A stretch of DNA of 64,000 nt from NCBI GenBank assembly GCA_008632985.1, contig QPGO01000054.1:343050-407049 (forward strand), given 5' to 3'. The notes below the pieces were generated by a model. The model ran no database searches. It was given only the letters and a program-made list of their open reading frames with translations, and was not told the origin of the DNA. Position 1 is the stretch's first letter. Each line of letters begins with the position of its first letter. Origin of the DNA: Psammoneis japonica. Lineage: Eukaryota. Made by a program: the position numbers and the translations under genes. Positions 20,060-64,000 of this stretch are shown in pieces.

Positions 20060-20200
20060 ATTGCCCCACCATGAAGTGCACAATTGGAGCCACAGAGGCA
20101 CACATTGAAGGTGTTGGCCAAGTGAGAGCTAACCCAAGGTGTCATTCTGGCAAACCCATTTGTGATTGGGTAAAATTTGCTCAAACTGGACAATCTGCTT
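20060..20200 (+). mobile_element. Plavaka-like transposase C-terminal fragment
   Basis: GATEAHIEGVGQVRANPRCHSGKPICDWVKF matches the recalled RAxPxY...PxYDW motif with Y->C. Confidence 0.45.
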
Positions 20201-22729
20201 GCCTTGGTGTGCCCCAGTGGGCAACCATCTTCTGCAGAGAGACACCAACCAGTTTAAGTCTCAATCATTTTTGAATGACACACAAAGACACACACATTGG
20301 TTGGGGATCCCATGTTTGATCCAAGCAAGGTGTCCTCCTTGAAAAGAAAGCAGGTGCTTGTGTTCAAAGACAACCTCACTCTCAAGGAAGAAGAGCCAAG
20401 ATGGGAAGTCAAAACCTAAGAACAAATGGGTCATGCAAGTGCACCTGAATGAATTTTAAAATGGCAGGGCAGTCCAGTTGACAAGAACAGTGCAGATTGT
20501 TCTCCTCCTGAAGAAAGCAACACTGCAAGCACCTGTTTGGGCTGCTGAATGCAGGCATTGACTGTGGGCAAACCGGCTCACCCTTCTTCCTGGGATCATC
20601 AAGTTTTTTGCAGAACTCATTGTCAAATTTTTCAATGTGCCACCCTCCCTGTCTTCCAGACAAATGGGCCTTTTTTGGATTGACAGTGGAAATGCATTCT
20701 CCGCCAAAAGGAGCACTCTGATGAAGGCTGCCTTTCACCCTGACAGCTTGTCCAATGTTTCTCTCATCAGTGAAAATGACTTCAATGAAGGCTTCTTTTG
20801 TGACAAACAGGTTGAGGTTTTGACCAAGATGAGCCATGTCAAAGAAGCAATTGCCCGAGTCCCTTGTGCACTTCTTGATGACAAAACCCTTGCAGACTCT
20901 GTCTTTGCCACCATGGCAATTGCCAAATTCTCCCAGCTGGTTTGTGAAGGCAGCACAAATGTTTTTCATTGCATTCTCCTCAGCTGTTTAATTGACTGTC
21001 TTTTTGCTGATGCAATGAAAAACAAGAACAGCACTGCAAATGTCCAAATGTGACATCCAGCGCTTCCTGTCAGCACAAATGGATGCTTGACCCCTGTCAA
21101 GATTGAGTGGCACAAAAGTGAGTGCAAGCAATGTGTGTCCAATGCTTGTGGCCAGCCCAACCCAGCTTGCAAAGTGAGGAAATGTTCTTCCAACACAGTT
21201 CTTTGGGGTCTTTGCACACCCTCCTGATGTTCTTGAGTCCTGGCCTCTCCATTGGGTGGGCACTTTCCGTGGATGGTTGACAGCTGCAGAGGAACTGCAG
21301 GAGAGGAGATTCTTGTGCAACACCATCATTGGGAAGCTCCGGTCCACACACAACTGGGTTGTTGATGCTGGGATGTGTTGCAGGCAAGCCAATCAACGAA
21401 CTGGTGGAATGACAAAAGGAGGGAGCGGATGCTTGAGAAGGTGCTGCTTGGACAGTGACAGATTTGTGTGGGGTCCGGGGTGCACAGACTCACAATGGAG
21501 AGTGAGTCTGGGGTGGAGACAGAGCTCACTCAGCTGCTGCAGCAGTGGGGGAGACAAAGATGCAGTGAGTTCACCAGGGAAAGCTGGTGAACAAAGTGGG
21601 TCCATCTTCAAGAAGGGGGGGGGGGGGGCTGTGAAGTGGTCTGCAAAAAAAAAACACTGACATTGAACACATCTCCAAAGCTGTGACATGATGTGTCATG
21701 GCAATCATCCACGCAAATGATCCTTCAACAGCTGCACTCTCTGCAAAGGTGGGAGTCATCATGCAATGAACCCTGGCAGTTTGCTCTCTGGCTTGCAAGC
21801 CCAAAAAGTGGGGTTTGGTGGCTGCGCTGCCAATGTGAGGAGGAAGCATGAGCTGCACCCTGACAAAATCATTGAAGGGGGGCATGTCAACTGACATTGC
21901 TGCACCCCCGTAGAAATGGGGGCCATTGGATGAACCCCAGCAGCAACATCAGAAAATTGTCAAGAAGCACAGAACAACCACAAGCTGTGCCCCCCTGCAA
22001 GCATCATGGGGGTCATGGGATGAATGTTGGCAGCACAGCAGACATCTCCAATGTCATCCAATGCCAACCCTGTGATGCAGCTCTGCAGAACTGTGAAGAA
22101 ATGAAGAATGGCTCTGGAGATGGTGACTTCCTCCCACTTTTGACTGCATTCTGATGCTGCTTCTTTGATGGGCGAGAGTGGCGACATCCCCTGCATGCCT
22201 TTAAACTGCCGGAAGGTGATGAATGGTGACCCATGATGAACAAAAACCAACAAGTGCTGCACAGCAGCAGGTGTGTGGTGGAGAAGTGTCACTGCAGTGC
22301 ACAAAAATTGTGAGCAAAATTCCAACTGAACAAAACAAAGATTTTGGAACAAACAAACTTGTGCATTGAGTGGGACATCAAACCATGGGGAAAAAAGAGT
22401 TGTTGATTGGCACAAAAAGAAAACAGCATCACCCTAAAAAAGCTTGTGATTTGTGCAGTGCATCCATTTGGAGAACACATGGGGAGGATGCCAGCTGGGA
22501 GAATTTGGAAGAAAATGTCTGTTTCATGTGAAGTGGGACAAATTAAAAATCCAGGAAGCATCAATTAAATTTCACCACATTGCAGGAGTCATGCAGGTGC
22601 TGTGGGAGTCATGCATGGTTTTGTGGAAAAATGCAGGTTTGTCACAATGAATGTGGGTTGTCCTGCATTTGAGGAACAAACACCCAACAGATTGATGCAA
22701 AACCTGCATGGAACTTGCCTCTGACAGTG

Positions 22730-24220
22730 TGGCAGCCACATGTGTGGAAGGGGGTGAAGTCATCAACTGCTTTGTTGCAAAAAAAAAAAACTGGGCTGCA
22801 CCTGGGCAGAGTTGAGGCTTGTGTCTTGGTGGTCCTGCAGCCAGAGAGAAGGCAAGCATCAGCAACAACCGCACTGGAGCAAATCTTGTTAAGATGAGTG
22901 GCAGCATGGGCATCACAATTTTGACCGCATTTTCCAGAAGCAGACAAGTGTGCCTGACTGCTGGGCAGTGGGTGAGCTGGTGCCAGAAAGGTTGTTGTTG
23001 ACCTTGGTTGATGAGAAAGTCATGTGGTCAGAAGCACGCATTGTCATCTGCAGGCACAGTGGCTGGCACACAAGATTCTGCACATTTTGAAATGACATGG
23101 GGGGGGGTGAGTTGTGAGTTGCAGGGATGCTGACAAAAATGTGAGATGACCAACCAGGCCACAAGGCATGGTGTCAGCCATGCAAAGCTTTGAGGATGGA
23201 TTGGCGAGCAGAGGCAAGTTTTTCATGTGCTCGTCACAATCATTTGAAAAAAGGATGTGTCACACCAAATGAGCACACTCGCCACAAAAATTACAGGGAT
23301 GGGCAGAACTTTGTCTGTTCATCAGATGTCACAGAGTGCACAAACAACAGTTGTGGCCACACCATGCAGAATGTTCAGCTTGTTGACTGCAGACATGTCC
23401 ACAGAGCCAGAAATGCCAATTGTTGGCATTTGTTCCTGGAAAGTTGTTTCTTGTCTCCCACAACCAAGCAGTGCATTTTTGGCAAAAACTGGCAGTTTGT
23501 GAAACAAACAGCTTCACCAAATCCAACAATTGGCAGCCCCGATGAGGGCCAGACACCCCATGAGCATTTGGGGATGCTCAGAGGCATTGCAAAACAACAC
23601 AGGTCAAGTGCCTCTGCTCTGCTTGACAGCCCATTGTCACAAGAGAATGGGTCTCTCTCAGAAATTGTTGCTGCCTGTGGCACTGGTGCACAGCAACCAA
23701 ATGCATTGAGAAGATCTCAACAACCAGACAGGATCATCCTGCAAGCAAAAATCTCCACGGTGATCTGGCTGCCATTGGCAAATGTTGAGCTGTCGGCATG
23801 TCCTGCCCCCCTGTGTGGTGAGGATGCTGGCAGGATTTTGATCTTGCTTTCTCTTGACAAGCAAGTTGCTGCCATTGTTGTGCACTCCCCATTGGTTTTG
23901 TTTGGTCTTGAAATCCATCACTCATTGCAAGGCAGAAAAATGCACATGCTTTGAGAACTCAGAATTTTCTGTGGCCACCCATCATGTCTCCACACTCTTG
24001 CTTGCAACAGGCACACATTTCAACCCTGCTGACTGGGTGGGACAGATGAGCAGGTGGCTTGTGCAGCTGCACTCCAGTTGACCAATGCTTGGGCTCCTCC
24101 AAAGTGGAAGCACCAGCAGCAAATGCTCAAGTTTCTAGCTCAAAAGTGGAGCAAGCATGCCAACAAAAACTTTGAAGCTGAGGTGATGAAAGATGCACCA
24201 CTGGCTCTTTTGTGCATGAT
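22730..24220 (+). repeat. Diverged direct repeat, copy 2, with about 440 bp extra (about 23205-23640)
   Basis: Colinear with 17620-18550; several differences are TG versus CA swaps. Confidence 0.9.
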
Positions 24221-25296
24221 GCATGTTTGACACTCAAGCTCATTTATGAACACTGGTGGTCAAATCTAAAAGATTTGACTTGTCAATTGAAGTGGGTGCC
24301 AAACTGCAAAAAGCAGCAGGGAGACTGGTGAAACATTGAAAAGCAGCTGGCTGGCACTTGCAAAACACAACAAAGGCAGCTGCTGTGTTCTTCATTTTCA
24401 AATTTGGGTGTGCTCTCCTCACAACCTCCTCAGCATCACTGCAAGGCACAGTCACCAGCAACAAATTGTCTTGTCTCTGGAACAACACTGGTTGAACAAA
24501 GCTCACATTGCTGGATGGCACTGCTTGCTTTGTGAAGTGCAACCCTCACAGCGGTTGGGATGACGGTGCTGGCCCAAATGGAAAAAAGTCCCAGGCAAGT
24601 CAGTGGTGCAAGTCTTGAAGATCATGATGCTCTTTGTGTCATTTCAAGAAAAGAAAGAGGCAGTTTGTTGGAACCCAGCCACCGCTGCTTTTGGCTTTTG
24701 GCTTTTGGCCTGAGGGTTGCTGAGAAATGAGCACCATCCACACAGTGTGCAGCATGAGCCACACACACACACGCTGGCCCACATGGCCAAGGCATTGTGG
24801 ACACAAAAGAGCAAGGTTTTCAACAATCTTGTCTTCCAAACTCTTCTTGTGAGTTCAGACTCTCATTTTCTGCCAACATCCAGAATCTCAGGAAGTGTGA
24901 GATGGGTTGGAAAGGCTGTCACAGTGTGTTCCCAACCAATCACCTGGGACCACTGCACCTTGCTCTGGCAAGAGTTCATCCAGGAAGGATTGACAAATGG
25001 CTTGAGCTGATTTGCACACATGACTGCCTCCTGTTGCAATGGACATGTTTGAGCTCCATTTTTCAGCACCTCTGAACAGGTGGAACGGTCTCAACTTGGT
25101 CAGATTTTCCATGAGCGGACATCAAGAGTTCACACAGCGCCAATGGAATGACGCATTCTCGAGAGAATGGACACTTTTCAAGATGTGATTTGTGCCGTCT
25201 CCACCTGTCGCGTCGGTTGTCATTGACGACGAAATGGCGCATGTGAACGGCACAGCACAGAGTCCATGCTGGCATGAGTGCCGAGAACAGTTAGTC

Positions 25297-37173: not shown

Positions 37174-37502
37174 GATTGAAGCAATGAGACTTGATCTATG
37201 GACTGCAGGTGAGAGGAAAAACTGGAATTAGCAGCGGAGTGACCAACGGCAGTGGTAATAACAACAAGCGACTACAAAGGACCGAGTCTGAGGTTTGAGG
37301 AGGCACCAGCCACCCGACGACGTCAAGCCAACAAGCAATTCTCCAAGCTCCAGAAGTTGCTCCAAGCAAGAGCTTTTTGTCTTCGCGTCCAGCGTCGCGC
37401 GCCGCGCGTCGCGCACGCATGCAGCTACGGCACCATGCAGCCAAATCGAACGACGGTGTCCCCGCGCCATTGCTGAATGCCGTTAGAACTCCGACAGCTG
37501 TA

Positions 37503-38695
37503 CACCCAACACCAACACCGCAGTCGTCCAACATCGCACAACACAACAGTTGTGCAGCATCGATCGTTGAAGCTCATTGAACAAGCCAGAAGATCCGCAT
37601 GCCCTGATGGTCACGAAAGAAGAAGCCACCTCAGAGGTGGCCCGCACGCCCAGTCCTCAAAAGGAATTGTCTCCAGCGAAACGCGCCAAAGTTGGTCCCA
37701 AGGTTGATGTTGCTTTTGCAGAGAGTTTGGTTCATGCCAGCACACAAAGGCAGAGTGACGAAGAAGATCCGCGGCTTGTCAGACGGGCCGCTTTGTGGAG
37801 GAGAATTCGTCGCCAATGCTGAGACAAGAGTTTCTGCACTTTGAGTTTCTGCTTTTCCAAGATGGAGTCTAGTGATTCAGGAGAAGAGGTCATTGCTTGG
37901 TGCGGTGTCACTGCAGGCCATCTTGCAGATGATGGCAACAGCACCCACGTGTGTGCAGGAGGTGTGGGCAGCCAGGGAAACCCCATTCTCTGCGAGGTCG
38001 GTGCAGCGGTGTCCAAGTCTGCGTCGACCAATTTTTTGATCTTCTCCACAAGGAAAGATGACAGGATCCGGGTGATGGAGATGCTTCTCGCTGAGAATTT
38101 GGGTCTTGGCAATGATTTTTTCACTCTTCCAAATGAAGGAGCAAGCTTTGAAAATGGGGCAATGTTGATCAGGTTCGCTGCCCAGCAACGTGGTGCCATC
38201 AGCACGGTGAGCACCCCTTGTTTGGCTCACAATGGGAAAGCTGCAACAGCTGGAGACATTGCAGTCACTGATTGAAAATCGAGATGGCACAAGTCAGCTT
38301 GCCAATGATGGAGATGGTGGGGCCATTTTCATCTGCAAAAGTGGTGATGGTTGGTGCATCCCATGTGCTGCGCAGTTGTGCAGATGGTTGCCACAAATCC
38401 TTTGGTGTGCCTTTGAAATCTATTTTCAAGGCTCACTCACTTTTGGGAGGGGCTCCTGCTGCTCCTGCCACAGAGTGTCATCAGTCAAGCCCTGCCAAGT
38501 GCAAATTCTTTGAGTCCCACAATGTCTTGCATGTTGAAGATGTTGCGTTTGAGAATGTGGGTGACTTTTCTGAATCTCACAATCTTGCACATGGTGAGGC
38601 TGTATTTGAGCAGGACAACTCGCTTGAACGGCCAATCGCGAAACTGGGATGAAGGGCCATGCCACACCTCATGCCTCACCCAGGCACCAAAAATG
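37503..38695 (+). pseudogene. Trypsin-like serine protease pseudogene inside TpA-depleted domain 3
   Basis: WCGVTAGHL (TAGH His motif) and NDGDGGAIF (GDSG-like) motifs; in-frame TGA at 37820 and frameshifts; 2 TA in 1.2 kb while many CG remain. Confidence 0.6.
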
Positions 38696-41243: not shown

Positions 41244-42156
41244 ATGACAAGAATTAGACGGACACTATTCATCTGCGCTACACTTCTTTCGGCAGCAGCA
41301 TCGGGTAGCACAGATGTGAAGGAGAGTAGCGTAAGCCAACACGAGTTAGCGACAGTCAGAGATTCACGCCTACTCGGTAAGTTCTCATTTCAAGAGTTGT
41401 GTGTAATCATTTCTGCCATGTGAAAATGAAATTGGGACGAATTTGCACCTCCCCGGACCTGGAATATGGTGAATCATAGCTAAAGTAGATGTTTGTGTGC
41501 AGTGGTTGCGGCTATCAAAGTCTCAGTTTATGATTCATGAGAAAGCTTTGCAGCCAGAAACCCTAAAGACAAAAGGAAAACTGGAAATATCGTTTACTGT
41601 TGGCACCACTCGGCTGACTATAACTTTCTCCATTTCACTCTCGCACATTTGTGTTTGAACAGGGGACGAGACACCGAAAGTTCATCATCATCATGCTGGC
41701 ACGGACGGTGGTGGTGGTGGAACAGGAGGAGGCGGCGGTGGCGGCGGCGGCGGCGGAGGAGGTGGCGGTGGTGGAGGAGGTGGAGGTGGTGGTGGAGGAG
41801 GAGGCGGTGGTGGTGGCGGTGGCGGAGGAGGCGGTGGTGGTGGCGGAGGAGGAGGTGGTGGAGGTGGCGGTGGAGGAAGTGGGGCATCGGGAGCGAGGCA
41901 CGCTCCAGCTGGGGTAGCACGCAGAAACACAATGCTTTTGGTAGGCATCGCAACAACTATTGGCTTGGTAATCGCAGGTACAGTGATGCGCAAGCGACGA
42001 GTGGTGACTGAGGCACATCCACTTCAAGGAAGCTTAGACCGCAGAATGAAATTGTTTGGAACTCTTGCAGGAAAGACAGATTCCCGTCACAACCGTCCGG
42101 CACGGCGACATGAGGATGAATATGAATCTATGGGTGATGACGGTGTCATGGCCTGA
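41244..42156 (+). CDS. Single-pass membrane protein, SAP-like family member C, with poly-Gly linker (internal exon structure uncertain)
   Basis: Signal peptide, DSRLL (RxL), HHHH, long Gly tract, TM-VMRKRR, then AHPLQGSLDRRMKLFG. Confidence 0.7.
41707..41878 (+). repeat. GGN trinucleotide tract encoding poly-glycine
   Basis: Mixed GGT/GGC/GGA codons in frame with the downstream TM exon. Confidence 0.9.
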
Positions 42157-43549: not shown

Positions 43550-45069
43550 TGAAAGCTCTGTCCAGCAAGCACTTTAAAATGTCTAACTGGCAATGATTTC
43601 ATTTCAGCAAATCCAGCAGACCTTCTCTTTGGTGTCCAAAGTCTCATCTGTTGACTCGTGCGAACAGTGGAGATTGCGCACTCCCTGACACAGACACCAA
43701 AACTTGAGGCATCCAGCAGCGAAGCCACAGATGATCCCTCCGCATCCAGCATCCTCGTTCACATCCAGCGAAGCATCTCTGGAGGTGTCGCAGTCACAAA
43801 CATTGACCCGGGCACAGACCTTTTGGAAATCATGAAAGCTCATCCAGAAGCACCCGTCGTCTCTTCAGCTTCAAATTGCAACTGCTTGGCAATGCTCTTG
43901 TGCTTCTTCCACGCGCTCAAGTGATCGCTCCACTTCCCCTTCCACTCGTGGGTTCCCCAAGGGTTTCGTAACTTCATGAGCTTGCACGGTTTGGCTCCTG
44001 ATGTGGGAAGACCTGTCGCATTGCGATCAGTGACTTCTGCAGCAGATGTGACACTGCAAGCATGACCGGCAACGAGTCCATCCTTTTCGAGCATTTGCTC
44101 ACCACTCGGCCCGTCCATCTTGCGACAGTCCATTTCACCAATAGAAGCGGAAATGAGAGCCTTTTGCTTGTCACGCTTTTTAAGGAGTGTCCACAATTGG
44201 TCCTTGGAGCATTTTTCCTTGGTCGTGCCAAATCCACAAGCACGCTTGTTGCTTGGATTCTTGCCATCCTTGAGAGCCACCATGTCTTCCCAAACCCAAG
44301 CGTGACTCTTGGGGTCCAACGACATTTGAAACACGTCATCGCCTGTCATGGACAGCCAACCCCACAGGACGAAACCACCAGAAACGTCTGCACAACTGCC
44401 ACAGAACTTGGCGCAAGCCTTCTCGAGAAGGATCGCCCACACAGTTCATTCCCCCGTTGGGTTTCATGAACCAAGGCTTCTTGGAACCCTTCTTGCAGGG
44501 AATGCGGTCATTGACCGTGATGATGACCCATCGTTTGTGTTGTGGATCAAACATGCGAATCTTGTGCGTGCCACAAGGACTGCACTCCTTGGTGAGAAAC
44601 ATGTGACGAATCACATCGGGAAATTCCGAAGCACACGCAAAGGCAGCCACCAACTGGCAATCACCGACAGCACCTTGACACAAGTCACTCGGCTCAATTT
44701 TCCCCTCAAACAACTGAGGTCTCTTTCCCCTGAACGCACCCAAATCTTGTGCTCTTGCCCAATCGGTCTCCTTTTGCATTTGTGTTGCAGCAGGCTTGGA
44801 CCTGTCTTCTTTGGAATGATCTCCGAGAGCGGCTGCTCCGTGAAACTTGTTGTCTTCGCATGGATGTCCAAAGCAGCAACAGCAGACAAACCTCCACAAA
44901 CAGCCGTTTCCCACATTGAGACAGCGCTGACAGAGAACCGTGGCACAGGGAAAGCCGTGGATTCGAGTGGATTTGTAGAGAAGCCCAATGGCAGACATGA
45001 AGGGGCAGCGCACAAAAGATTCCAGAGGAACCCTGCCCTGCCACTCTCAATTTCCTTGAAGGTAGGCAT
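43550..45069 (-). pseudogene. Calpain-like (CysPc) cysteine protease pseudogene inside TpA-depleted domain 5
   Basis: DLCQGAVGDC, WAILLEKACAK, GLVAGHACSV and KLRNPWGTHEWKGKWSD motifs; frameshifts near 45010 and 44445; conserved Tyr positions read Cys or His. Confidence 0.92.
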
Positions 45070-45537: not shown

Positions 45538-46632
45538 ATGGCTTCTCAGGAGGAACGGGATCGTATTCTGGCAGAGTACATGGCGAACGTTCAAAATGAT
45601 GATGACGATGATGAAGGAGAGTTTGATCCATCCGGTGTGGATGAGGACGACGAATCCGATTCTTCTTCTGTCAATCAGGTGGAGGACGATAATACCGGTG
45701 TTATGTTGACGGGGACACTGACGAAAAAGGACAATCGTCTCGTGTATTCGGGCACATGGAAAGAATCCGCAGGCACTGGAGAATACAAATTCAAGCTTAA
45801 ATCCAAACAGCAGAAACTGCCGCTTCATTGGGATGCTTCCAAGCCCACCGTGTCGGACCCGTCCGTGGAGAGCATTCCGCGCATGAGAAGCTTGACGTTT
45901 GATGGTTTCTTCTTTTCCATGGAAGGTAACAAAATGAAGGAACGCGACGTTAACGTTACCTTCACAGCTCAAGCAGAAAGCGGCTCGAACGATAAATTGA
46001 AGTCATACAAGAATGATTCACAAAACGATGATAGTTCAGACGAGAAGCCGGCATCGAAACCTACCGCTCATGAAGAAGACAGCAAAATGCCTTCCAAGCC
46101 TGCAGCTGTAGAAGAAGAGGACGGCAAGCTGCCATCCAAACCCGCAGCCGTAGAAGACGAGGATGAGAAGCTGCCCTCCAAGCCCGCCGCAGTAGAAAAC
46201 GAAGATGGAAAGCTGCCCTCCAAGCCGGCTGCAGTAGAAGACGAAGATGGAAAGCTGCCCTCTAAACCGGCTGCTGCAGTGAATGGTCCGAATACTCGCT
46301 GTAGTGTTTACGGACGGGGCGTTAACGACTATGGGAACTTTGAATTTGAGGGGACCTACGACGGAACCGGTCAACTCATGTGTCGGAAAAAGTACATTCA
46401 GTCGGTGGCTGCTGCTGCTGGAGCCGCGGCAGCTGTCTCGTCGGATGATAATGATGAAGCCGACGACGCAGTGGACTATGAAGAGTTGATTGCGTTACAC
46501 CAAGATGCAGGACTTCCTGTGGAAGAGTTGCAAAAGCGTTATCGCGAACAGCGCAACAATTCAGAGGGAAACACCTCGAGCAAGAGGCAGCGCATTCAAG
46601 AGAGCGATGAAGACGATTTCGATGGTTTCTAA
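45538..46632 (+). CDS. Acidic protein of unknown function with 14-aa tandem repeats
   Basis: Open 364-codon frame; (KLPSKPAAVEDEDG)x5; C-terminal YEELIALHQDAGLPVEELQKRY. Confidence 0.75.
   Translation: MASQEERDRILAEYMANVQNDDDDDEGEFDPSGVDEDDESDSSSVNQVEDDNTGVMLTGTLTKKDNRLVYSGTWKESAGTGEYKFKLKSKQQKLPLHWDASKPTVSDPSVESIPRMRSLTFDGFFFSMEGNKMKERDVNVTFTAQAESGSNDKLKSYKNDSQNDDSSDEKPASKPTAHEEDSKMPSKPAAVEEEDGKLPSKPAAVEDEDEKLPSKPAAVENEDGKLPSKPAAVEDEDGKLPSKPAAAVNGPNTRCSVYGRGVNDYGNFEFEGTYDGTGQLMCRKKYIQSVAAAAGAAAAVSSDDNDEADDAVDYEELIALHQDAGLPVEELQKRYREQRNNSEGNTSSKRQRIQESDEDDFDGF
46084..46280 (+). repeat. Coding 42-bp minisatellite, about 5 units
   Basis: aagctgccctccaagcc(c/g)gc(c/t)gcagtagaa(g/a)acgaagatgga units with mostly synonymous variation. 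Confidence 0.9.
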
Positions 46633-46719: not shown

Positions 46720-48567
46720 TTATTGCATGTTCTGCTTTATTTCCCCCTTATCGACATCTTTCTCGCCCCCCTCTCTGTCTTTTGTTTCGTCCTGCCTTTT
46801 TTCTTTGTCGACCTCTGCTTCTTCTGCATTGTCGACCTTGGTGTGCTTTGTTCCGTACAATGACCTCTTTCGCATTTCCCGAAAGGAATGCACACTCGCT
46901 TTCATGTATGCATTCATTGACCTCGCATGGTTTTTGCGTTCTTCCTCCATTTTCTCCTTGAGCGCAGCAATTTCAGCTGCGTGATTCTTTTTCAATGCCT
47001 TAATGTCTTGGTCATATTGAAGCTTGACGTCCTTTCTTATTTCTGCGCGGAGCTTGGCTTCATCTTGCTTCTTTGTTTTCCCGTCCTTTTTGCTGGGTTG
47101 GCTAGTAGTAGTAGTCGACGTGCCGGCTGCTTCGGTGACGCTGGTGGAAGATGAAAAACGCTTGACAATGCGTTCGTGGCGAGACTGACATTCCTTCATT
47201 GTGGCTTGTACGGCCAGCTGTGTCGATTGTCGCTCGTGAACCAATACCTCCTTTGCCACCACATACAGTTGGCTTTTGCCGATTGCGTATTTGTGTTCGT
47301 CGTTGTTCGACGGCTGTTTTAGAATCACCTCCAGGATTCTGGATGCCAATTTCTCAATCTGCTGCGGTGTTATCTTTTGGCCTGCAGTAGAGAGAGTAAA
47401 CAAAAGATAACGTCAGTCAATAACTTAAACAAGAGAAGGAGTACAAAACTTAAAAAAAAAAAGTCCAGACTTACGTTTCAAGGTCTCCCGAACGTATGGC
47501 CCAGCAATCTTTGGAAGAGCTTTGTCTGTAAAAATTGCGGGATGCGAGCGTTTGGCTCCCGAGGCAGGACGAGGATGTGTTGTTCCATCCTCTGCACGCG
47601 ATCGCTGAGAATGGTGCGTACCGCGGGCCTCGGCTGCAGCCAAGGAGTCCTTAGAAGCAAGTGGTGGCTGATACGATGCCTCTTCCGACGTCTCACGGTG
47701 CGTGCGTGATTGCTGAGAACGGTGCCTCTCGGATGCTGTAAAGGATTCCTTAGAAGCAAGTGGTGGCTCAAACGATGTCTTTTCTGAAGTCTCGCGGTGG
47801 GCGTGGGAGTTATGGTCATGCTGTGGTACCTGTTCTGAAGAAGCACGTCGTTCCCCAGAATAACGAGCTTTCTTCCTTGAATGAATATGGGCGGCTGCTG
47901 CGGCATTAACAGGTGGAAATCCAGAAATCGCTGAACGATCATATGTTTGGGCTAGGGGCACAAATTGCCTATCTGCTTCTTTCTCTTCATCACTATCATC
48001 AATGGTAATGACTTGAGCAGGTGGGTATTCCTCGCCGGTTCCCAAATGCGAGGCCAATATTTGACGTTGCGCAGCCACCGCTAATGCTGTTGTTGCTGCA
48101 GAAGGGACGGGAACAACAACCGGAACGCCCCTTACCGCATACCCCATTTGTTGATACATTGCAATCTGTTGAGCGACCAGATTATTATTGGAAAGGGCAC
48201 CATCCTCCTCTTCAAAGTGCAATGCGTCTTCCCCTTCAGCCCCGAGCTGTGGTTGAGCAGCAGCAGCAGCGGCGGCAGCTCCGTACAATTCCGGATGACT
48301 CTGCTGTAATCCCCGCGCTGTCTCCAGAAGCTGTTGCTGTTGCTGCTGATAGGCTAACGCTTCGGTCCAAGATGCCGCCGGAGTTGGTAGATACAACTGC
48401 GGCAGTTGAGCAGCAGCAATCGCGGCGGCAGCGGCCTGATGATTTTGCGTGAAACGTTGCGCTGGATCTACAGAATAAAATGGAAGCGCCGGATTCGCCA
48501 CTGCGTCAGGGTCATGTCCACCATCATTCCCCACATCGTGTGGAGCGCCCAACAAGCGAGGGTCCAT
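46720..48567 (-). CDS. Gln/Ala-rich low-complexity protein with C-terminal coiled coil, 2 exons
   Basis: Phase-1 intron 47382-47474 joins TLKR|QKITPQQ; internal duplication HRETSExxSxxPPLASKxS. Confidence 0.7.
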
Positions 48568-50692: not shown

Positions 50693-51239
50693 GGTTATTT
50701 GCTGCTCTTGTTAAAAGCGGAAGGCAGCGTCTCTGAAGGCGGACACACGTTTTGTAATATTATAGACTAGCAATCCAATGCGCATGCTCAAGATATCATG
50801 TAGGCTCCGAGATTCATAATACAACCAAATTGCCGAGACAGTCCCCGCGGCTCCAAAATGCAAGTCCACGATCGAAAGACATGTCCAGGCATCCCTCTCG
50901 ACATGCAAAGAGTCTTGTTTGGGCAGCTACGAGCACCGCTAGGCTAGGACGGAAAAGTGTTATCGGACAACGATCAGGGTTATAGAGTGTAAAGGACGAC
51001 TCTTTTGAACCAGACTACTCTAAACTATCTCTGTGAGTGAGAGATAAGACGCGTTGTGGGGCACCAAGTTTAGCACGCACATCTAGGGTGAAAAAACCCT
51101 CACACCAGCAAAAGTTGAAGGCTTGCCGGTCGGAGTGGAAAAAAATAAATCGCATCCTCGACAATGACCCGCGCACCGCCGTTCGTGTCATACGGCATTT
51201 TCGTTGACTTTCCTGTCAATCATGGTCTAACACCTTGTG

Positions 51240-53500
51240 ATGTGTTGGTTGATTGCTGACATGGCAGGTGCAGCATTGACGGTCGCCGTTTGCAACAGAG
51301 ATGATGTGAGTGGGGAGTTTGTTTTGACGTGGAATTTCTTGCACGGATGTCCACAGCATGGGGGCATCATTTTGTCATGACAAGTGCACCTTCAATTTCA
51401 GCACCAAGATTGTGGCAGATGATCTACATTGTTTGAATGTGACACAAAACTGATGAGATGATTTGATCCACATTTTGTGGTTTTTCAGCCTGTCCAACTG
51501 CACAGGCAACATGAGTGGCATGAGAGATGCAGACCAAATGAGGAAGGTCAGGGTCACCAGAATGAGGCACGTCATCTGTGACCACATTCTTGACACCAGC
51601 AAGATGCTTGCCAAGGGAGTCAATGCCAACATTCCCACAAATGCAAATGGCAGACCAAATGCAGCACAAGAGCCATTCATTGCCCCAAATGGCTGATCCA
51701 TCTGGGGGGAGGGGGCTGATGATGTGGCAGCTGTGCTCCCACAAACTCTTTGCACTTGGCATTCTTGAGAGAGTTGTTGATGGTCAGGCTGTGCTGGGAA
51801 GAACCTTCAGACCCCACCACAGGAGAAAAAGAGCCAGACAAAATTCTTCAATCTCATCAGAAGAAACATGCTGGACATGTCAGGCACCTCTTTTTGAGGA
51901 ACCTCCCGAGTGATGAAAGGAGTGACAAGCTCTTTCCCCACAAGAAAGGGGGGGGAGAGTTCAACAACAGAAACACCAATTGGGTCTGGAGACAAGAGAG
52001 AACACCTGTGCACCCAGGCTTGCAAGATGCCCGGCAATGTCATGGGCCCTGATGTTGACATCCTGGGAGTTGCAAGTCACCTGGTGGCAGTGGGGCATTG
52101 CACCAAGCTGAAAGGAAGGTTGGACAACACCTTGAATGTTGCTGAGCATGCTTGCAGCCAGCCACTTTAACTGAAGGTGACACTTCAATGATGGAGAGTG
52201 CTCCCCCAGATTGCGATGCAATCAAAGTCCTTGACACAGGCATTGAAGACAAGCCTGAAGTTGCCAGTTTTTGAGATGGCATCTGACGAATTGTGAGCAG
52301 CCACAATCATTGATGCACACAACCAACTTCTTGACAAACTCAGAGCCATTGCATTGCCAGAGCTGGGGTCAACAGAATGCTTGGAGATCCCACGACCCTC
52401 CACAATGGCAAAGCAGCAATGAGAGAGTGACCCATGTGCAGCATGGGCAGAAACAAAAACTGCGGATGACTTTGCCTCCCAGCCATTGACCCACCCAACA
52501 CCTCAACATGAACCACAATCCAAACCCTGCTGCCCATGTCCCTCCTGACATTTGCCATTTCCATTTCCTCTCTCTTTCCCTGTGGCCTCCCATGCTGTGG
52601 TCAGTTTTTGCTTGAAACCCTTGAGTGGCTGCACAACTTTTGCAACCAATTTGGTTCCAGAAGCAACTTTTGCAACAATTCACAAGCTTGGATGTGGCAA
52701 CTTCTTTGGCAACCCATGGCCACCGGCCCTTTGACTTTTGCTGCCCACAATCTTGGGTCCTGCAGCTTTTGCAACACACAGCCTTGGGTGTGCCCACAAC
52801 CCCCCTTGAAGGTGGCTGCAAGTTTCTTTCCAAGAAAAGCAGGAGACAGAGTCTGTCTTGAGGCCAGAGGCAGCTGAAGCTGGAGCTTGATTTTGCTGGG
52901 ATGGACACAGCACACCATGCTGCCAAAATTCCCACTCTGAGCATGGAAAACTCAGCGAGATGGTGAAAGAGAAAAAAAGGTGCTCCTGCTGGTGTGCCAA
53001 AGTGTGAGCGGCACTTGCACCGCTGACCCAGGCAACTCTTTGTTCATGTTGGCAACCACAAAAGTGATTTTTAGCATGATTGACATGAACCCAATTTGTC
53101 CAAGCTTGGCACGAAAGATGTGGTTTCTCAGCGACCATTTGCCGGGTGATGTGTCACTTCTGTCACTGGCAAACATGGCAAATGACTGACTTCATGACAA
53201 ACAACAACACCTGCATGCACGAATCAAACCCCAAAAGACTTGCAGGCATGCTTGCACACTGCTCCAGCCCCCAGCACCACTTCCGCCAGCCTCCAGAGCA
53301 GAGCCACACCACCTGCCCTTGGCCAGGTTGTTCCCAAGAACCGGTTGTCCATCCAGCCATCATGCCAGCCACAGCCACCCACCCACCATGCCGGTGAGGC
53401 CCCACCTGCCACACCACACCAGCCATCCAGCCAGGACCCGACTTTAGTGCACAATCCCTTGCCAGGCCAGGCCAGGCCAGGCCAGCCATCGCCAGGACCA
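51240..53500. other. TpA/CpG-depleted hypermutated domain 6 (unidentified relic) ending in (GCCAG)5
   Basis: About 3 TA in 2.2 kb (51425, 52168, 53445); gccag x5 at 53461-53485. Confidence 0.85.
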
Positions 53501-56703: not shown

Positions 56704-58943
56704 TCAAACGCTGGAAATGTCGGATTGGACGCTGGCGGTGTCTCCCTTACTAGCAATGCTTCCGTTCAGAGACATGACTGACATTTCGGGATTCATGGTC
56801 AGCAAGGTGGCGTCTTTGGCGACGATTCGGGAGAGGTCCTCATTGTCGCTCTCCAAGTTTGCGTTCAAGCGCTCCAACAACGCAGTCATGGATCTCTCCA
56901 GGGGAGGAAACGCCATATTGAACTGATCTAAATGAGGCTTCAAGTCAGACTGGATCGAGTTGTCGCAAAAGATTTGACCAATGTCCGAAATATCCGACAT
57001 GAGCTTGCTCTCCTTGCACTCGCGTATATCCTCGGAAAGATCCGTGAGCCTTTTCGCCAGCGTTCCACACTTCTCACGGTGGGTCTTTTGCGCCGCCATT
57101 GCGGTTTTCTTGACAGCAGCAATGTCCTTGGTGGCAACCTTGAGAGCCTTTTCGATCTCCTTGAGTTCAGCCACGTTGGCCTCGTGGTCCAAGTCCAGCT
57201 GCCTGCCTTCCTCTTGGAGAGCCGTCTGCAGCGACCTGTCGTTGTTCATTTCTTCGGCGAACTTTTGCTTGAACTCATCGTAGTATTCCATCCCCTTAAA
57301 GGGACGCTCGACAAACATATAAACTTTGAATGGCTTGTCACGAGTCAGTTGCAGCGACAGCTCTTCTCCTTTGCTCACAGGAATAACTCCGCAATCATTG
57401 ACGTTCGTGTAGGAGTTGTAAAGGACCTTTTCGTGCTTTGTCATACGAATATCCTTGATGGATGACGGGATGAGCGAATTACCACGACCAATTATGCCCT
57501 TGAGCGCATTGTCATCGTCCTCATGCTCCATGATGAGGGTGAGTCGCTCAGTATTCTTCCCAGTCTTGTCGACACCATGAAGGTGAGCTTTGATGTTGAC
57601 CGAGTGCATGATTGGATCCCGCTTCCGCTTTGGAACGATTTCCCACGATGCATCACAGCGCATGGTGACGAAACCCTTGTCAACGAAATGTTTCCCAAAG
57701 AGCTCATTTTGCTTCTTATGCACGGCGAGAAGATCATCCAGGTGGCGAATGGTGTCATCAATGTTCTTCCTCGCGGCCGGGTAATGATCAATGGCCTTGT
57801 CGAGATCCCGTTGCTTCCGACACAGGTTTCTGAATGCTGCGATTGCTCCTCGCATTTCACGGTCAATCTTGGATGTCTCCATTGCCAGTTGAGACTGAAG
57901 GCGATCAAGGTCACCCTTTGAGATTTCGGAGTCGGCGACGAGTTTCGCTTGAACCTTGCGCACCATTGCAATATGCTCCACGCACATTTTGTTCAAAAGG
58001 TTTCCCGACGCTTCCAATTTATCAATCTTCCAGGAGCGAGCTCGAGGGATCGACTGTTGTTCCACTTCATCCGAACGAATCATTCCAAAGATCTTCTCCT
58101 GTAGCTCTTCCCTGCCATCTTCGTCAAGATCAACAAGAATATGACGATCACCGATGCGGTTCAAGAAAAGTCCCCCAAGATGTGAATCTTTGGAGATTGC
58201 TTTTGCCGTCTTCATCATGGTGTACTCGATTTTCTCGCTGTCCAAGTCGGGGTCTTCATTCTTCGTCAGAACAAAGTACAAGTGACCAATGGCGTTCCGG
58301 TATTGATCTCCGAACAGCAGAGAGAGGGGCTTGTGGTAGTGATGGATCAATGTCTCCACGCTTGTTTCAAAGATCTTTTGCGCTTCCAATACAACGACCA
58401 ACTTGGTTTTCGTCAAACGGGTCAAGAAGCACTTTTGGAGAATGTCAATTGTGACCTTCTTCTGGCGATTGTGCTCGGCAAATCCGGGCATGTCGCAGAA
58501 ATGCATGCCGTTGATAGTGTACACCTTGGGTACCACAGTAGTGGAGTTTGCCAAATGTCCAATGGCAATGCCCGAGATTTCACAGTACCGCTTGTTGTCC
58601 CCCGTCCGATTCGAAATGATCTCGACAAACTCCTCTTGCGATAAATCGCTGATGAGTCGAGCAATGGTTGTGGACTGCAGCAGAGGGACAGAAACAAATA
58701 CACAGTTTGAGCACAGATGCAAGGCTTCAGTAAAAGCTCATCATATCCTTCTCGAGGACGTACCTTGCCAGCCCCCGTGATTCCGAACGTCACATAGCAA
58801 ATAGCCTCGCTTCCGCGTCGCGTGTATTCGCTATCTTTCAGAGACTCGTCAAAGTCACGATAATGCTCTTTGAATTCTGCGACAAGCTCCTCAAAGTTAA
58901 TCGGCTCCTCCACTCTTTCGGTGGCTCCGTTGGTTTTGCACAT
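56704..58943 (-). CDS. P-loop GTPase-like protein with long coiled coils, 2 exons
   Basis: Splicing intron 58675-58763 restores G1 GITGAGK|ST; G3 DMPG; G4-like LTKNE. Confidence 0.78.
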
Positions 58944-59078
58944 GATTGACGAAAGCGCTCGGCTTGAAAAAGTGAGGCCAATGTGCGATGATTTGTGTTG
59001 CCGAGTCGATCATGATTAGAACAATGCACGAATCGATTCTTCGACCAAACAAGTAGACTTGTACTTGAAGTCGTCAGC

Positions 59079-59206
59079 CAGAAGCTGAGTCGATGCACGA
59101 ATCGGCTAACCAGAAGCTGATTCAATGAACGAATCGGCTGACCAAAAGCTGAGTCGATGCACGAATCGGCTAACCAGAAGCTGAGTCGATGCGCAAATCG
59201 GCTAAA
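59079..59206. repeat. 32-bp tandem array, 4 units, each an imperfect hairpin
   Basis: cagaagctgagtcgatgcacgaatcggctaac units at 59079, 59111, 59143 and 59175. Confidence 0.92.
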
Positions 59207-59229: not shown

Positions 59230-62200
59230 ATGAGCTGCAATCTTTGCCAGAGAGACAGAGAGAAGTTGAGCCGGGGCACCCTCAACCTGCCAATTTTTCC
59301 AAAACGAACATCCATCCTCCTGAATCATTTGCTGCGATTCCCAGTCAATCCACGTGAAATTTTTTTGGAAACACCCGTGGGTCAACATGCCGAGGTGATG
59401 AGTGCTGAGTGCCTTGTTGTCGGCTGAGCATTGCAGCAGGTTGACCGTGCGGACGTGCTCTGATGTCACCCCCACGACACTCAACAGATGATGAAGCCAG
59501 CACTTTTGGTGAAGAGCATGCCATCGTTAATGAGAGATTCGTTTGCTGCCTTTGTCAATGGCCTGTCTTGGGTGGTCTGGAAATTGACTTGAATCAATTT
59601 GCCCATCCCGACACCCAACATGAAATGCACACACTGTGCAGTTTTCAATCCCATCATGAGGGACCAAGGGGCAGTTTCCCCCAACATGTGCCCATCCCCC
59701 AACCAATGGCAATGAGTCAGCACTGCCATGTTTCTGTGCTCCAGCTTGTGCCTCACTTGCTTGTCTTGCCATGTGACATCAAGACATTTGTCAATGGACC
59801 CCAGCTCTGTCTCCTCTGCTGCAGCTGCACTTTGCACATGGGGCCACTTTGAAAATGGAGGTGAAGCCTTTGGCACTGCTGAGCTCACCTTGAATGAAAC
59901 TGTGGTTTGCTGCCAAGTCTTCTTGTTCATTGGTGCAAGCACTCTTGAAGGTCTCACACCAAAGCAGGTTCGTCAGATTGGAGCAATTCAATGAGATGAC
60001 TTGGCTGCAATTGCAGCAGACAGTCAGAGTCAGCAAGACCAAAGAAGCTAGATGCTGTGCCCTCATTGATCTGGAACCCCCCCCCCACTGGGAGAGACAG
60101 CTCCCTGGGTGCACCACCAGGGAGTTGTGTGGTCTTTGCCAGCGGGTCAGCCAGATGCTTGTCCAACAAGGAGATCTTGAATTTTTTTGCAGATCAATCC
60201 TGTGCACTCCATGTGTGTGCTGCCTTTTTGATGATGGAAAAGGTCACAGCACCACTTAAAATCAGATGGCACAACAAAAGAAAGTGATCATCCAAAATGA
60301 AGTGGGAAAAACGGGGCTGGCAGATCATTGGTTGTTTGGTTCAGACAATCAACCCCCCTTTTTTTTGCACTCAAAGAGTCTCTTGTTGTCACCACATGAC
60401 AATGGTTTTTCTGAGGGTTTTTTTTTCACTCAAAGAGTCTTTTGTTGTCACCACATGACAACGGTTTTTCTGCCTGCATCTCTGCAAAGGGGGGGCAATG
60501 GAAAAATCAGCTCTGCAAATTTGCGCAGGTGCACTGCTGAGGCAAGCCAAGGGTGGTTCACATGCTTGTGCAACAGAGACCACAGAGGTGATTTTTGACA
60601 CATGTCCCACATGTGTGTGCCACCATGTGCTCTGTTGCGACCAAGGGAACACCCCGCTTGAAAGCATTTTTGTGTTTGCTGTTCAAAGTGAGCAACTCCA
60701 CAGCAAATGATGGTTGATTTTCTGGCACACACAGTCAACCCACTGAGCCTGAGCTTCCAAACACAAGTGAGCCCACTGTGGTGAGATTAAAAAATTGCAA
60801 GGGAAGACAACACACTGGTGGGCCAGCTTTTGTTCAACCACAATGACCAAGATGACATTGACACAAAGAAAGTTGCAGGATTTGTCCTGGATGTTGTGGT
60901 GCACCATTGCCTCATCTTGCAATCACGAGCATTTGCGCTCTGTTGGGCAGCCCTTTTGATGAGCACAACAATGTCAAAAAAGCCAAAAAGCAGCTGTTTT
61001 GCTTTCTTGCAGAACCTTCAGTGATGTTGAACCAAAGCAACAAAAGAGTGGACACTTCTGACACTTCCTTGGAATCCAGTGAACAAAAGTTTGGTTGGCA
61101 ACAGACTCCATCTTCACCAGCTTGAGCAGGGAAGTTGTTGCTTGTGATCATGTTGGAGAGAGCTGGATTTGCACTCCTCATTAAAAGAACACCAACAAGG
61201 ATTTGGGCTGTTGGCACTCAGACATTGCATGTGTTGGTCAGAATCTCTTTGTTGCAAAAGATTCACATGATTTTGAGCATTTGGAGCTGGGTTTTCTTGA
61301 GTGCAAGAACCTTTTGTGCTGTGCCAAAGCAGAGGTTCTTTGTTCCCTGCATGTGTGAGTTTTTTAAACACCTCTCCAACAACAACAACTCAAATTTGTT
61401 GGAGCCCTTTTTGGTCAATCTGTTGCAGCAACATGCCAATGTGAGCGGCTCTCCAAAATTGCTCTGGCATTTTCAGCGACAAAATGAGTTGCCCTTGTGA
61501 CAGTTTTGTGTGTTCTGCCCTGCCACTTGTTGTCAATGAACTTTGTCCAGTTGTCAACAGGTTGCCCCAAGCAGTGCTTTGAGTTGGCTTTTACATTGCT
61601 TGGCACAGGTGCTCAATCACAACTGGCATGAACTCCAGCCCACACATCTTTGAGTGCAATTGCCAACAACCATGAGCCCAACAGTCTGCCTTTCCTGTTG
61701 CAGCACCTTGTGGCAGTGTTCAATGTGAACCTAATGTGCTGGTGGTTGAAACAAACTTGGGACTTGGCTGCAATGTGCTTTTTCTTCTTTGCCTCTGTGC
61801 CTGTCCATCTGACAGCCTGGAAGACATCATGGCCATTTGTGACAGCAACTTGGCCTGGAGGTCATTTGCACACTGCATCATGAAGGATGCATGGGGTGCT
61901 TCTGGTTTTGTGTGTTCTGGGATCCTTGGCAAAGAATCTGTGGCTGCTTTCCATTCTGTCAGTTCTGCAATTTCCAGGGGGAACCAAGTGGGGTGTCAGC
62001 ACTTTGTGCCCTCCAATTTCTGAAGGCTCTGGTCATTGCCACAGATCTTCAACATCTCTTTCTTTCTGCTCATTTCAAGGCACATGGCATCCCCAAGAAG
62101 AGGCTCTTTCATTGCTGCTGTGGAGTCAGTCGTCCAATGCCAACTTCTTACACTTCTCTCTTTTGGTGATTTCATTCTTGGCTTTCCCAAAGCTGTGTTG

Positions 62201-64000
62201 TCATGCTTTGTCCATGCATGGAATGAAAGCATCATTTTAAACAACTGTGTCCAGCAGGACTGTCAAAAACATCATTGCACTTGACCCACAGGTCCTGGAA
62301 TTCTTCATCTGAAATCTCAGCAGCTTTGCACAACTTTTGTCAAGATGGTTGGACAACATGACAGCAAACTCCTTCTCTTTGCAACTCCTGTCCTTGCTGT
62401 CATTTCAGTTGTCTGCTGAAAATGCATGCATGCACAAGCAAAAAAATTTATGGCCAGCTGCACAAAGTCAGAGTCTTTGGGTCAAACATGAGGAAAATCT
62501 GCAGGTTTCTGCACATTTCTGGTGCAAACAAGCACACTTTTCCATTGATGGTGGAGAGCCCACCAAATGCATCACTTGGTGCCACACCTTGTTTGTTGAT
62601 GAGTCATTGCTGTTCCTGTGAGTGTTGCAGAGAGCAACTCATTTGTCACACCTCTGCTGCATGTGCACAGCTTTGTGAGGTCAATGCTGTCTTTTGGCAA
62701 CCCACAAGACTGGAGAAACAAAGGAGAAAAAAATCAAAATCTCCTGCATTTCCATGGAGGCTTGTCACAATGTCTTGAAGTTCACATTCCATTGGGCAAG
62801 ATGCTGCTTTGCAAGTTGTTGCTTTTGGGGCTTGTGTTTGGGCATCATGTGTGCAGTTTGACCACCTTTTTCAATTTAAGTGGGAACAGGTCAGCAGGAC
62901 AAATTGAAGAAGAGTTGCCAATCACAGCTGCAAGCAAAGCTCCAAACCAACTTGAGTTTGTCACAGACTTGGCTGGCATTGGTTGAATCTTTTGAGCAAT
63001 GTTTGTTGGCAGCAGCAAAAGTCAGATGTGCCATTTGGCTCACGATGCATGTTGCACATGCACACATTGCTTGGACTGTGCAGTGTCTTTTTCTAATTCT
63101 TGCCCTCCCATGCAGCACCACCTGCAAATGCAAATGGCTTTGAATCATTTGAAAAATTGTCTGAAAAACAATTCTTGCTGTTGGCATTGACATGACTTGT
63201 CCCAAATTGGGCGGCAAACATGAGAACAATTGTTCCCAGTCAAAGGCTCATTTGACAATCACAAGGGCATGTGCAGTCCAAGCACATTTTCCAGTGGCCC
63301 AAACACACTGTTTGGCAGAATGGGAAAGAGATTTTTGGCTCAACACACACCTCCTTGGACCACAATTCAATGGCTTTTGCATTGAAAAGTGCCATGGAAA
63401 GAGTGGAGTTTGATCATCTTGTGAAACTCCAGCTGATTCATTCATGGCAATGACATTGCTTGCATGTTGCGCATTCCTCACTCTGCACATTTGTCCATTT
63501 CTCTTGATGCTCTAACAAGAGAAATCAACTCTTGTCTCACAGCTAAATTCCAACAACCCCAACAGCTCTTGCAATTGATCCCAGGCCAACTTGTGTCACT
63601 CATGTTCAAGAACAGCAACATCAGCTTCATGGTTGTCATGAAACAAAATCATCAAATGCTGTCACTCTGCACTGAGGATTGAGCTGCCCATGATGACACA
63701 CAACAGCTGGAGCTGTTGCAGTGCTTCTTGCACAACAGGGCCTTCACAATTTCACAGCAGAGACCACCCATTTGGTTTCAAGACACTGGTGCTGGTTCAG
63801 GACTGAGTGTCTCATTTTGAAAGTCCAGTTCCAGCAAACACAAGATGAGCTGATGAGCATTGTTTCTTCCAAATGTCCAAGTGGACTTGCATGGTTGTGC
63901 CCTGCTGCATGGCAGACAACTTTCACAATCAGCTCGCAATTGCAGCAACCAGTGCAGGGACAATTTCTGTCATCACAGTGCTTCCTGCAAAACACCATGG
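59230..64000. other. TpA/CpG-depleted hypermutated domain 7 (continues past the window end)
   Basis: About 14 TA in 4.8 kb, about 12 of them in Y-TA-R context. Confidence 0.9.
61700..63000 (+). mobile_element. Probable Plavaka-like transposase relic
   Basis: Ordered fragments SLEDIM..DAWGASGFV, SLCNSCPC and SLGATPCLLM resemble recalled LEP..AWR.LG / LCR.C.C / GATP.D.MH motifs; heavily decayed. Confidence 0.35.

Follow-up and report, generated by a model that had tools for sequence, protein, structure and literature searches.

In fungi, repeat-induced point mutation (RIP) changes C to T mainly at CpA, creating TpA and AT-rich DNA. Hypermutation directed at TpA has previously been reported once, in mutation-accumulation lines of the chlorarachniophyte B. 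natans; the main text of that preprint assigns 231 of the 302 new substitutions in the nuclear genome to two regions of integrated viral DNA, puts all A/T-to-G/C mutations at TpA with the dinucleotide alone as the motif, describes the targets as integrated giant-virus and virophage DNA, many of them without annotation, and proposes an ADAT2-like DNA adenine deaminase as the agent (Mettrop et al., 10.64898/2026.01.13.699255). The words 'CpG', 'trinucleotide', 'tetranucleotide', 'flanking' and 'TTAA' do not occur in this main text; the supplements may hold context data. In our full-text literature search, the preprint was the sole match in any organism, and no report of TpA-depleted domains in diatoms was found. 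Here we describe a 64,000-nt window of the genome of the diatom Psammoneis japonica (contig QPGO01000054.1 of assembly GCA_008632985.1, positions 343,050 to 407,049, forward strand), in which six bounded domains have lost nearly all of their TpA (hereafter TA) according to a defined sequence context.

The window is gene-dense eukaryotic DNA with a G+C content of about 48%. Counted in 500-base bins, six stretches are nearly free of TA and four of them are also nearly free of CG, and TG plus CA rises from a background of about 72 per bin to 100–130 inside them. With borders placed from the gaps between consecutive TA, the domains (D1 to D6) together cover 19,569 bp and hold 48 TA in total. The borders are sharp, to within 100 bp, and the surroundings are of normal composition. 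The domains are as follows (percentages are of the outside density; Y, pyrimidine; R, purine; strand given where assigned):

5968–7448: D1, TA/CG-poor, 2 TA and 16 CG (19%)
16683–25291: D2, the largest TA/CG-poor domain, 8,609 bp, 23 TA (18 of them YTAR) and 66 CG
37502–38602: D3, 2 TA (4.8%) and 34 CG (55%), CG falling from left to right
43585–44975, minus strand: D4, a calpain (Peptidase_C2) copy, 3 TA (5.7%) and 61 CG (78%)
51229–53444: D5, TA/CG-poor, 3 TA and 24 CG (19%)
59230–64000: D6, 4,771 bp, 15 TA (8.3%) and 30 CG (11%), running to the window end

Inside the domains, the density of TA is 0.06x, that of CG 0.21x and that of CA/TG 1.52x the outside density. TA and CG are the only depleted dinucleotides and CA/TG the only enriched ones; for the other seven strand-paired classes the ratio stays within 0.83–1.17x (AA/TT 1.06x), and G+C is unchanged (48.6% inside versus 47.7% outside). 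With the outside taken as the ancestral composition, about 80 TA plus CG sites have been lost per kb against about 76 TG gained per kb, with both strands counted.

The TA that remain are strongly confined in context. Over all six domains, 35 of the 48 are YTAR (TTAA 19, CTAA/TTAG 12, CTAG 4), 13 are mixed (YTAY/RTAR) and none is RTAY, compared with 274, 919 and 496, respectively, among the 1,689 TA outside (chi2 104.9, p = 1.6e-23; Fisher test of YTAR against the rest, p = 2.3e-17). The ratio of inside to outside density falls from 0.78 for TTAA to 0.19 for CTAA/TTAG, 0.12 for CTAG, 0.053 for GTAA/TTAC, 0.029 for CTAC/GTAG, 0.027 for ATAA/TTAT and 0.021 for ATAG/CTAT, and is 0 for ATAC/GTAT, GTAC and ATAT. 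A preliminary description of this DNA had stated that the surviving TA of D6 are mostly Y-TA-R, and our recount agrees: 12 of the 15 are YTAR (TTAA at 59528, 60257, 60788, 61182, 61365, 62238 and 62877; CTAG at 60049; CTAA at 61732, 63094, 63513 and 63544), three are YTAY (TTAC at 61592, TTAC at 62149 and TTAT at 62449) and none is RTAN. All but one of the positions it listed are right (61733 should be 61732), and its figure of about 18 of 23 in the same class for D2 is exact; of the YTAY sites it had counted about two (61592 and 62449), both of which are present, and had missed the TTAC at 62149.

The residual pattern is neither compositional nor a matter of simple back-mutation. By the preliminary description's own refuting criterion, NTAN proportions set by flanking base composition, the expected share of YTAR is 0.329 from first-order flanks inside the domains and 0.25 from mononucleotides, against an observed 73% (binomial p = 1.6e-8); D6 alone departs in the same way (p = 2.5e-4), and the complete lack of RTAY among the 48 sites is likewise off the compositional expectation (p = 6e-5). 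Had the residual TA come from TG/CA by transition, 23% YTAR and 23% RTAY would be expected, which is rejected at p = 5e-13 and p = 3e-6, respectively; an origin by transversion would give 25% and 21%.

A survival model in which each strand contributes independently and multiplicatively, keyed on the base 3′ of its A, reproduces all 10 strand-symmetric tetramer classes (Pearson 3.3) and is strongly favoured over uniform loss (chi2 105.7, df 3, p = 9e-23). With the outside sequence, which is mostly coding and where in-frame TAA and TAG are excluded, as the ancestral proxy, survival per strand is 0.83 for TAA (95% interval 0.67–1.01), 0.30 for TAG (0.21–0.42), 0.066 for TAC (0.03–0.12) and 0.037 for TAT (0.014–0.08). 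The preferred target of TAY/RTA put forward in the preliminary description is borne out by this ranking, with YTAR spared. The next base matters too: A stands at +2 in 51 of 96 residual half-sites against a background of 27% (p = 3e-7), and among TAA half-sites it does so in 32 of 58 inside and 223 of 728 outside (p = 0.002), so that the survivors tend to be junctions of a T-tract and an A-tract, such as TTTAAA. These counts demonstrate both the dinucleotide specificity and the context ranking of the process.

The product side agrees in part with a T-A-Y rule. The rule predicts that mixed sites became mostly YTGY and not RTGR, and over all domains the YTGY excess is 532 ± 42 against 275 ± 35 for RTGR. 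Apart from D4, TG and CA are balanced, and they are unclustered throughout (runs z from −1.39 to 0.40 across the domains), with 548 TG and 545 CA in D6 (z 0.09) and 1012 and 957 in D2 (z −1.39). The plus strand of D4 has 112 TG and 148 CA, a sense-strand TG excess of 148 versus 112 (p = 0.03).

Two of the domains carry a record of what they were before. D2 contains a direct repeat:

17616–18553, plus strand: repeat copy 1, 72–76% identical to copy 2 by self-BLAST
22728–24225, plus strand: repeat copy 2, matched by self-BLAST to 17616–18553

The best block of this repeat (17616–18070 against 22728–23196) has 344 matches, 73 transitions, 12 transversions and 66 gap columns, and within it TG stands opposite CA at 15 discordant dinucleotides, with 80 concordant. 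As about 62 native TG/CA are expected over the block, roughly half of the converted sites are discordant, which points to independent conversion of ancestral TA or CG sites in each copy after duplication.

D4 matches the calpain family PF00648 of Pfam in two frames (E 2.5e-15 and 4.4e-27). A frame break lies near the G-run at 44451–44455 and an in-frame TGA at 44446–44448, so D4 is probably a calpain pseudogene. None of the 14 Tyr of its closest homologue (69–72% identity) is kept, the replacements being 8 Cys, 4 His, 1 Arg and 1 Phe. Against 23 diatom homologues, conserved Tyr columns are kept in 0 of 11 cases (one of these columns sits beyond the frame break) and other conserved columns in 218 of 269; solved calpain-1 chains also have Tyr at three of the altered positions. 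Relative to the diatom homologues, D4 further shows Ile to Met or Thr and Arg to Trp, Cys or His. Such changes are those expected of TA-to-TG/CA plus CG-to-TG/CA conversion. The repeat and the homologue alignments, read together, show that the TG/CA of the domains originated in situ and after duplication. The preliminary description had held that a TAY preference explains the loss of Tyr codons; the loss is real, but any TA-specific process removes Tyr codons, so the preference is not needed for it and only makes them the most exposed class.

Two further observations concern D4. The codon at 44653–44655 (minus strand) is Gln (CAG) where 16 of 16 aligned homologues have Trp after the catalytic Cys (GDCWL). 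TGG to CAG takes two transitions, possibly an ordinary G-to-A change giving TAG and then a TA-to-CA change by the mutator, a route that would mean re-conversion of newly arisen TA by the process. In addition, the TA-free zone of D4 and the calpain coding region (about 45000 to 43604, minus strand) end within about 25 bp of each other on both sides, with normal TA just outside, which suggests that the target was set by the extent of a copied gene, through homology or as a processed copy, and not by position. A scan of 80 metagenome loci near calpain relatives (336,946 bases, in 500-base windows at 50-base steps) did not reveal the same signature, all 54 low-TA windows being G+C-rich (0.55–0.74) and without a TG/CA excess; these loci are mostly short and of mixed taxa, and the scan says little.

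The loss of CG follows a different course. D4 has lost 94% of its TA density and kept 78% of its CG, and D3 has lost 95% of its TA and kept 55% of its CG. At several borders, the TA-free zone reaches 100–300 bp past the CG-poor core, leaving TA-free margins with near-normal CG at the left of D1 (5968–6117), at both ends of D2 (16705–16773 and 25086–25282), in D5 (51280–51344) and at the left of D6:

59230–59540: D6 left margin, 1 TA (the TTAA at 59528) and 13 CG in about 310 bp, CG near normal

The margins look as if TA editing had spread one or two nucleosomes past a methylated or decayed core. Because D4, D3 and the margins keep CG without TA, TA loss and CG loss are two separable processes. 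In D1, D2, D5 and D6, every NCGN class is reduced to 0.025–0.40x of outside. Survival of CG per strand is 0.29–0.52 by 5′ neighbour, a dependence of less than two-fold; loss is somewhat faster beside A/T, TCGA and ACGT being lowest and CCGG and GCGC highest, and a simple model fits poorly (Pearson 19). Decay of methyl-cytosine is most likely the cause of the CG loss in the cores of these four domains. As the source of the whole signature, methyl-CpG decay was rejected, since TA loss is complete where CG is kept.

We propose, as the probable explanation of these data, a domain-targeted process that acts as A-to-G at 5′-T-A-Y on either strand and is probably a DNA adenine deaminase. Localised hypermutation would turn TpA into TpG or CpA in place, within the six bounded domains. 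On each strand it would change A to G at 5′-T-A-N-3′ at a rate similar for TAT and TAC, lower for TAG and far lower for TAA, with an A at +2 protecting further, and the residual TpA would be the slowest-hit sites. Both strands would be hit equally, without long strand-coordinated tracts, and the outcome is that RTAY is erased, mixed sites are at 2–5% of the outside density and TTAA is almost untouched. A second, separable process, slower or more narrowly targeted, would strip CpG from the cores of four domains. A deaminase as the agent is suggested by T-A-Y itself, which recalls the U33-A34-C35 anticodon-loop substrate of TadA-type enzymes. Targeting might run through chromatin, small RNA or homology, and the role of the process may be defence against duplicated or foreign DNA.

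Several points weigh against this proposal. A-to-G on one strand is inseparable by sequence from T-to-C on the other. The domains depleted only of TA, D3 and D4, do not have the predicted product asymmetry (39 ± 12 versus 36 ± 11). The ratio of Cys to His at the former Tyr codons of D4 is 4:2 after Y and 4:2 after R, without an effect of the preceding base; the T-preceded codons went to Cys in 3 of 3 cases as predicted, numbers too small to weigh. Owing to the coding proxy, the absolute survival of YTAR may be overestimated; the ranking TAY > TAG > TAA holds under three other null models and is independent of this issue. Eukaryotic ADAT2/3 substrates mostly have G or A at position 35, which predicts no 3′-pyrimidine preference. 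The adenine motif reported for amphioxus ADAT2 is GAA and not TAY (PMC10354150).

The strand symmetry of the context, survival and dinucleotide counts makes thymine modification look the same in sequence as adenine deamination. In such a route, the T of R-T-A would be modified, perhaps through oxidation by a JBP/TET-like dioxygenase into 5-hydroxymethyl- or 5-formyl-uracil, and then wrongly read or repaired as C, giving TA to CA on the modified strand and TA to TG on the other. Dinoflagellate DNA carries 5-hydroxymethyluracil preferentially at TpA and TpC, and 5-formyluracil causes mutations; however, we know of no pathway with near-complete and exclusive T-to-C conversion, and for the sole experimental parallel, B. 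natans, the authors propose A-deamination. We consider chemistry on the thymine side unlikely.

The preliminary description had called the sequence preference enzyme-like or polymerase-like. An enzyme-like agent is what the context ranking suggests; a polymerase is harder to reconcile with the data. Error-prone repair synthesis would require a translesion polymerase of the Pol eta type, recruited repeatedly and making A-to-G errors at TA. In antibody hypermutation, Pol eta does produce A-to-G at WA motifs (W, A or T), with TA a hot context. However, WA also covers AA, and AA/TT is undepleted (1.06x); there is no surplus of other substitutions, the D2 repeat pair having transitions and transversions in the ratio 73:12; and the near-total loss of one dinucleotide with a 20-fold effect of the 3′ base is unlike any polymerase spectrum known to us. 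A polymerase origin is thus distinctly improbable.

The fit of the D4 TA-free zone to the calpain coding region, as for a processed copy, together with the slight sense-strand TG excess of D4, could be taken to favour a route through RNA, in which ADAR-like hyper-editing of double-stranded RNA was followed by reverse transcription and insertion, so that the domains arrived already edited. ADAR accepts U and A about equally as the 5′ neighbour and favours G on the 3′ side, a misfit with the absolute 5′-T and the 3′-pyrimidine preference seen here. Moreover, the D2 repeat was duplicated first and its two copies then edited independently, the other five domains show no imbalance of TG and CA, and the TA-free margins extend beyond the CG-poor cores. 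For B. natans, the preprint's main text describes mutation in place, within a region that is single copy (10.64898/2026.01.13.699255). Taken together, we regard the RNA route as very improbable.

Coding content is recognisable in only one of the six domains, so the ancestry of the other five is not directly readable, and one might suppose that there was no mutator: the domains would be foreign or unusual DNA in which TA and CG are avoided, whether through origin or through selection, and the TA still present would reflect function or chance. Such an origin is hardly credible in view of the TG/CA-discordant sites between repeat copies, the replacement by Cys or His of Tyr residues that 23 diatom homologues conserve, the balance between TA plus CG losses and TG/CA gains, and residual contexts that lie off every composition-based expectation. 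Equally hard to credit is the notion that the residual TA are new mutations following a context-blind erasure. The domains do look old, the D2 repeat pair having 12 transversions and 37 of its 73 transitions outside discordant TA/CG/TG/CA dinucleotides, and this divergence means that some residual TA must be secondary; nevertheless, 73% YTAR and 0% RTAY are far from the shares that either a transition or a transversion origin would give, and the persistence of secondary TA would still need context-dependent re-conversion. Mismatch-repair deficiency, which has a broad transition and indel spectrum without dinucleotide exclusivity, was rejected because the loss is limited to two dinucleotides and to bounded domains.

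With adenine deamination at T-A-Y as the preferred explanation, a wider and much more tentative idea can be stated. Diatoms may possess a RIP-like defence that runs in the direction opposite to fungal RIP: adenine deamination at chromosomal 5′-T-A-Y, with a motif inherited from the anticodon-loop substrate of a tRNA deaminase, would strip duplicated or foreign segments of TpA, and thereby of every Tyr codon, whatever the state of CpG methylation, in a system shared or convergent with that of chlorarachniophytes. We think this possible rather than probable; if true, no natural DNA adenine deaminase system with sequence specificity and a defined motif would have preceded it.

D6 is real sequence and mostly single copy. 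Contigs from a DNA run, which may be the source sample itself and so not independent, reproduce D6 with 1 substitution and a few single-base indels, and their word depth is 60–72 compared with 62.5 in the flanking gene. Two repeated elements lie in or beside the domain:

60500–60750: multi-copy segment in D6, about 250 bases, summed contig depth 232 against about 60–72
59078–59205, plus strand: tandem repeat of a 32-base unit, four copies 90–94% alike, with normal TA and CG, abutting the left border of D6

Five of six X1 loose-end consensus 30-mers, which represent other copies of the 60500–60750 segment, are without TA or CG when read by eye. A 59-base tandem duplication, 95% identical, occupies 60359–60472 within D6; its copies have barely diverged, so the duplication would be younger than most of the hypermutation. 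Run X2 covers D6 with one 36-base piece carrying 3 mismatches, which says nothing on expression.

No relationship among the domains emerged from transition-tolerant alignment of the 15 pairs, none of which rose above shuffled controls except a weak D2–D6 reverse match (82.5). The ends of D1 to D5 have no convincing terminal direct or inverted repeats, the direct-repeat score of 40.5 for D1 against a shuffle maximum of 35.0 being a weak 50-column alignment. A six-frame search found no Pfam family in D2 and D6, and none was found in the open reading frames (ORFs) of D1, D3 and D5; among 65 ORFs of at least 90 aa in and around D1 and D3 to D6, only the two D4 calpain pieces matched. The longest D5 ORF is unrecognisable in Atlas (recognition 822). 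In all domains TAA and TAG are nearly absent and TGA is effectively the sole stop, and the domains yield many overlapping ORFs of 100–270 aa on both strands without a family match, a trap for gene callers.

The genes around the domains are of host type. D1 is flanked by a THADA/Trm732-like gene and a PRPP-synthetase gene, and HMG-box, ubiquitin-like, mitochondrial carrier, GDSL lipase, WD40 and sulfite-oxidase-type genes also occur around the domains. The best named matches of the D4 calpain and of the PRPP synthetase, which lies outside the domains, are diatom proteins, at up to 72% and up to 65% identity, respectively, from Epithemia, Nitzschia, Cylindrotheca, Amphora, Odontella, Pseudo-nitzschia, Fistulifera and Seminavis. 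They point to a diatom or a close relative, none of the named sequences being a near neighbour. A 677-aa ORF has matches of 29–33% identity only. The coding part of this gene at 57501–58000 has 4 TA per 500 bases, normal CG (32) and modestly raised TG plus CA (85); the low TA may reflect ordinary codon usage or mild leakage from the adjoining domain. An 89-base segment at 58675–58763, bounded by GT..AG on the minus strand, is skipped by one contig of run X2, which confirms it as an intron of the 677-aa gene and suggests that run X2, labelled 'DNA?', is an RNA library. Outside the domains, tandem duplications of about 72–105 bases with 76–83% identity lie at 41706–41882, 46088–46274 and 47597–47799, two of them within long ORFs.

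Our findings bear on several questions. The same end state in a diatom as in B. natans would mean either that many marine protists have the process or that it originated repeatedly. The tetranucleotide rule (TAT and TAC hit about equally, TAG less and TAA far less, with TTAA nearly immune) offers a biochemical fingerprint for enzyme screening; it argues against ADAR-like and polymerase-like agents and separates TA loss from CG loss. Because G+C is unchanged, the domains are invisible to composition-based annotation, and because only TGA stops are left they give spurious ORFs of great length. For base editing, too, a DNA adenine deaminase found in nature and acting in a defined context would be of interest.

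Compared with B. natans, the domains share the restriction of A/T-to-G/C change to TpA, yielding TpG or CpA, and the confinement to discrete regions against a normal background, although here it is the end-state signature that is seen and not observed events, and ongoing mutation, demonstrated there, is inferred here. The two also differ in that the host here is a diatom, from a different eukaryotic supergroup; in that one target is a calpain copy of host type, most closely related to diatom proteins, whereas the targets there are viral DNA; and in that CpG is co-depleted in four domains. With fungal RIP the domains have in common dinucleotide-biased transitions in discrete DNA, destroyed coding capacity, sharp limits and a slight leakage into the flanks, but here TpA is destroyed (16-fold depleted) and G+C is unchanged. 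RIP acts on duplicated sequence; here D2 has an internal repeat and D6 a short multi-copy piece, but D6 is otherwise of single-copy depth and the domains are mutually unrelated. CpG methylation decay resembles the CG-to-TG/CA change in the cores of D1, D2, D5 and D6, where CG falls to 11–19% of the outside density in all contexts, but it does not account for the loss of TA and is weak or absent in D4 and D3.

Among deaminases, the natural substrate of bacterial TadA is U-A-C-G (U33-A34-C35), with the target A preceded by U; here too the target A is preceded by T, TA being the only depleted dinucleotide among those containing A, which is a matter of consistency and not of proof. TadA has C on the 3′ side of its substrate; the preference here is for either pyrimidine, TAC and TAT both surviving far less than TAG. 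According to a review, a TadA variant prefers YAC in DNA (PMC13109818), and amphioxus ADAT2 can deaminate DNA, its preferred triplet being TCG for C and GAA for A (PMC10354150); both are leads towards the enzyme. Natural TadA and ADAT2/3 enzymes are not, to our knowledge, known to erase a dinucleotide from chromosomal domains. An agent of this type would be a deaminase with an HxE-PCxxC active site that acts on DNA; of the 59 outside ORFs of at least 130 aa, 36 were scanned, and none of these belonged to a deaminase family. ADAR and APOBEC3 are alike in producing deaminase-driven clustered transitions that disable repeats or viruses, and ADAR gives A-to-G. However, ADAR acts on double-stranded RNA and tolerates a 5′ A, whereas here AA/TT is undepleted and TAG is lost less than TAC and TAT; APOBEC3 changes C to T on one cDNA strand, whereas the changes here are strand-balanced and in situ, require a 5′ T and favour a 3′ pyrimidine. 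In summary, what is seen in this window is to be grouped with the recently described TpA hypermutation, found here in a diatom and with a defined sequence preference; to that description it adds a context rule, a CpG decay that can be separated from TA loss, and a target that is a copy of a host-type gene.

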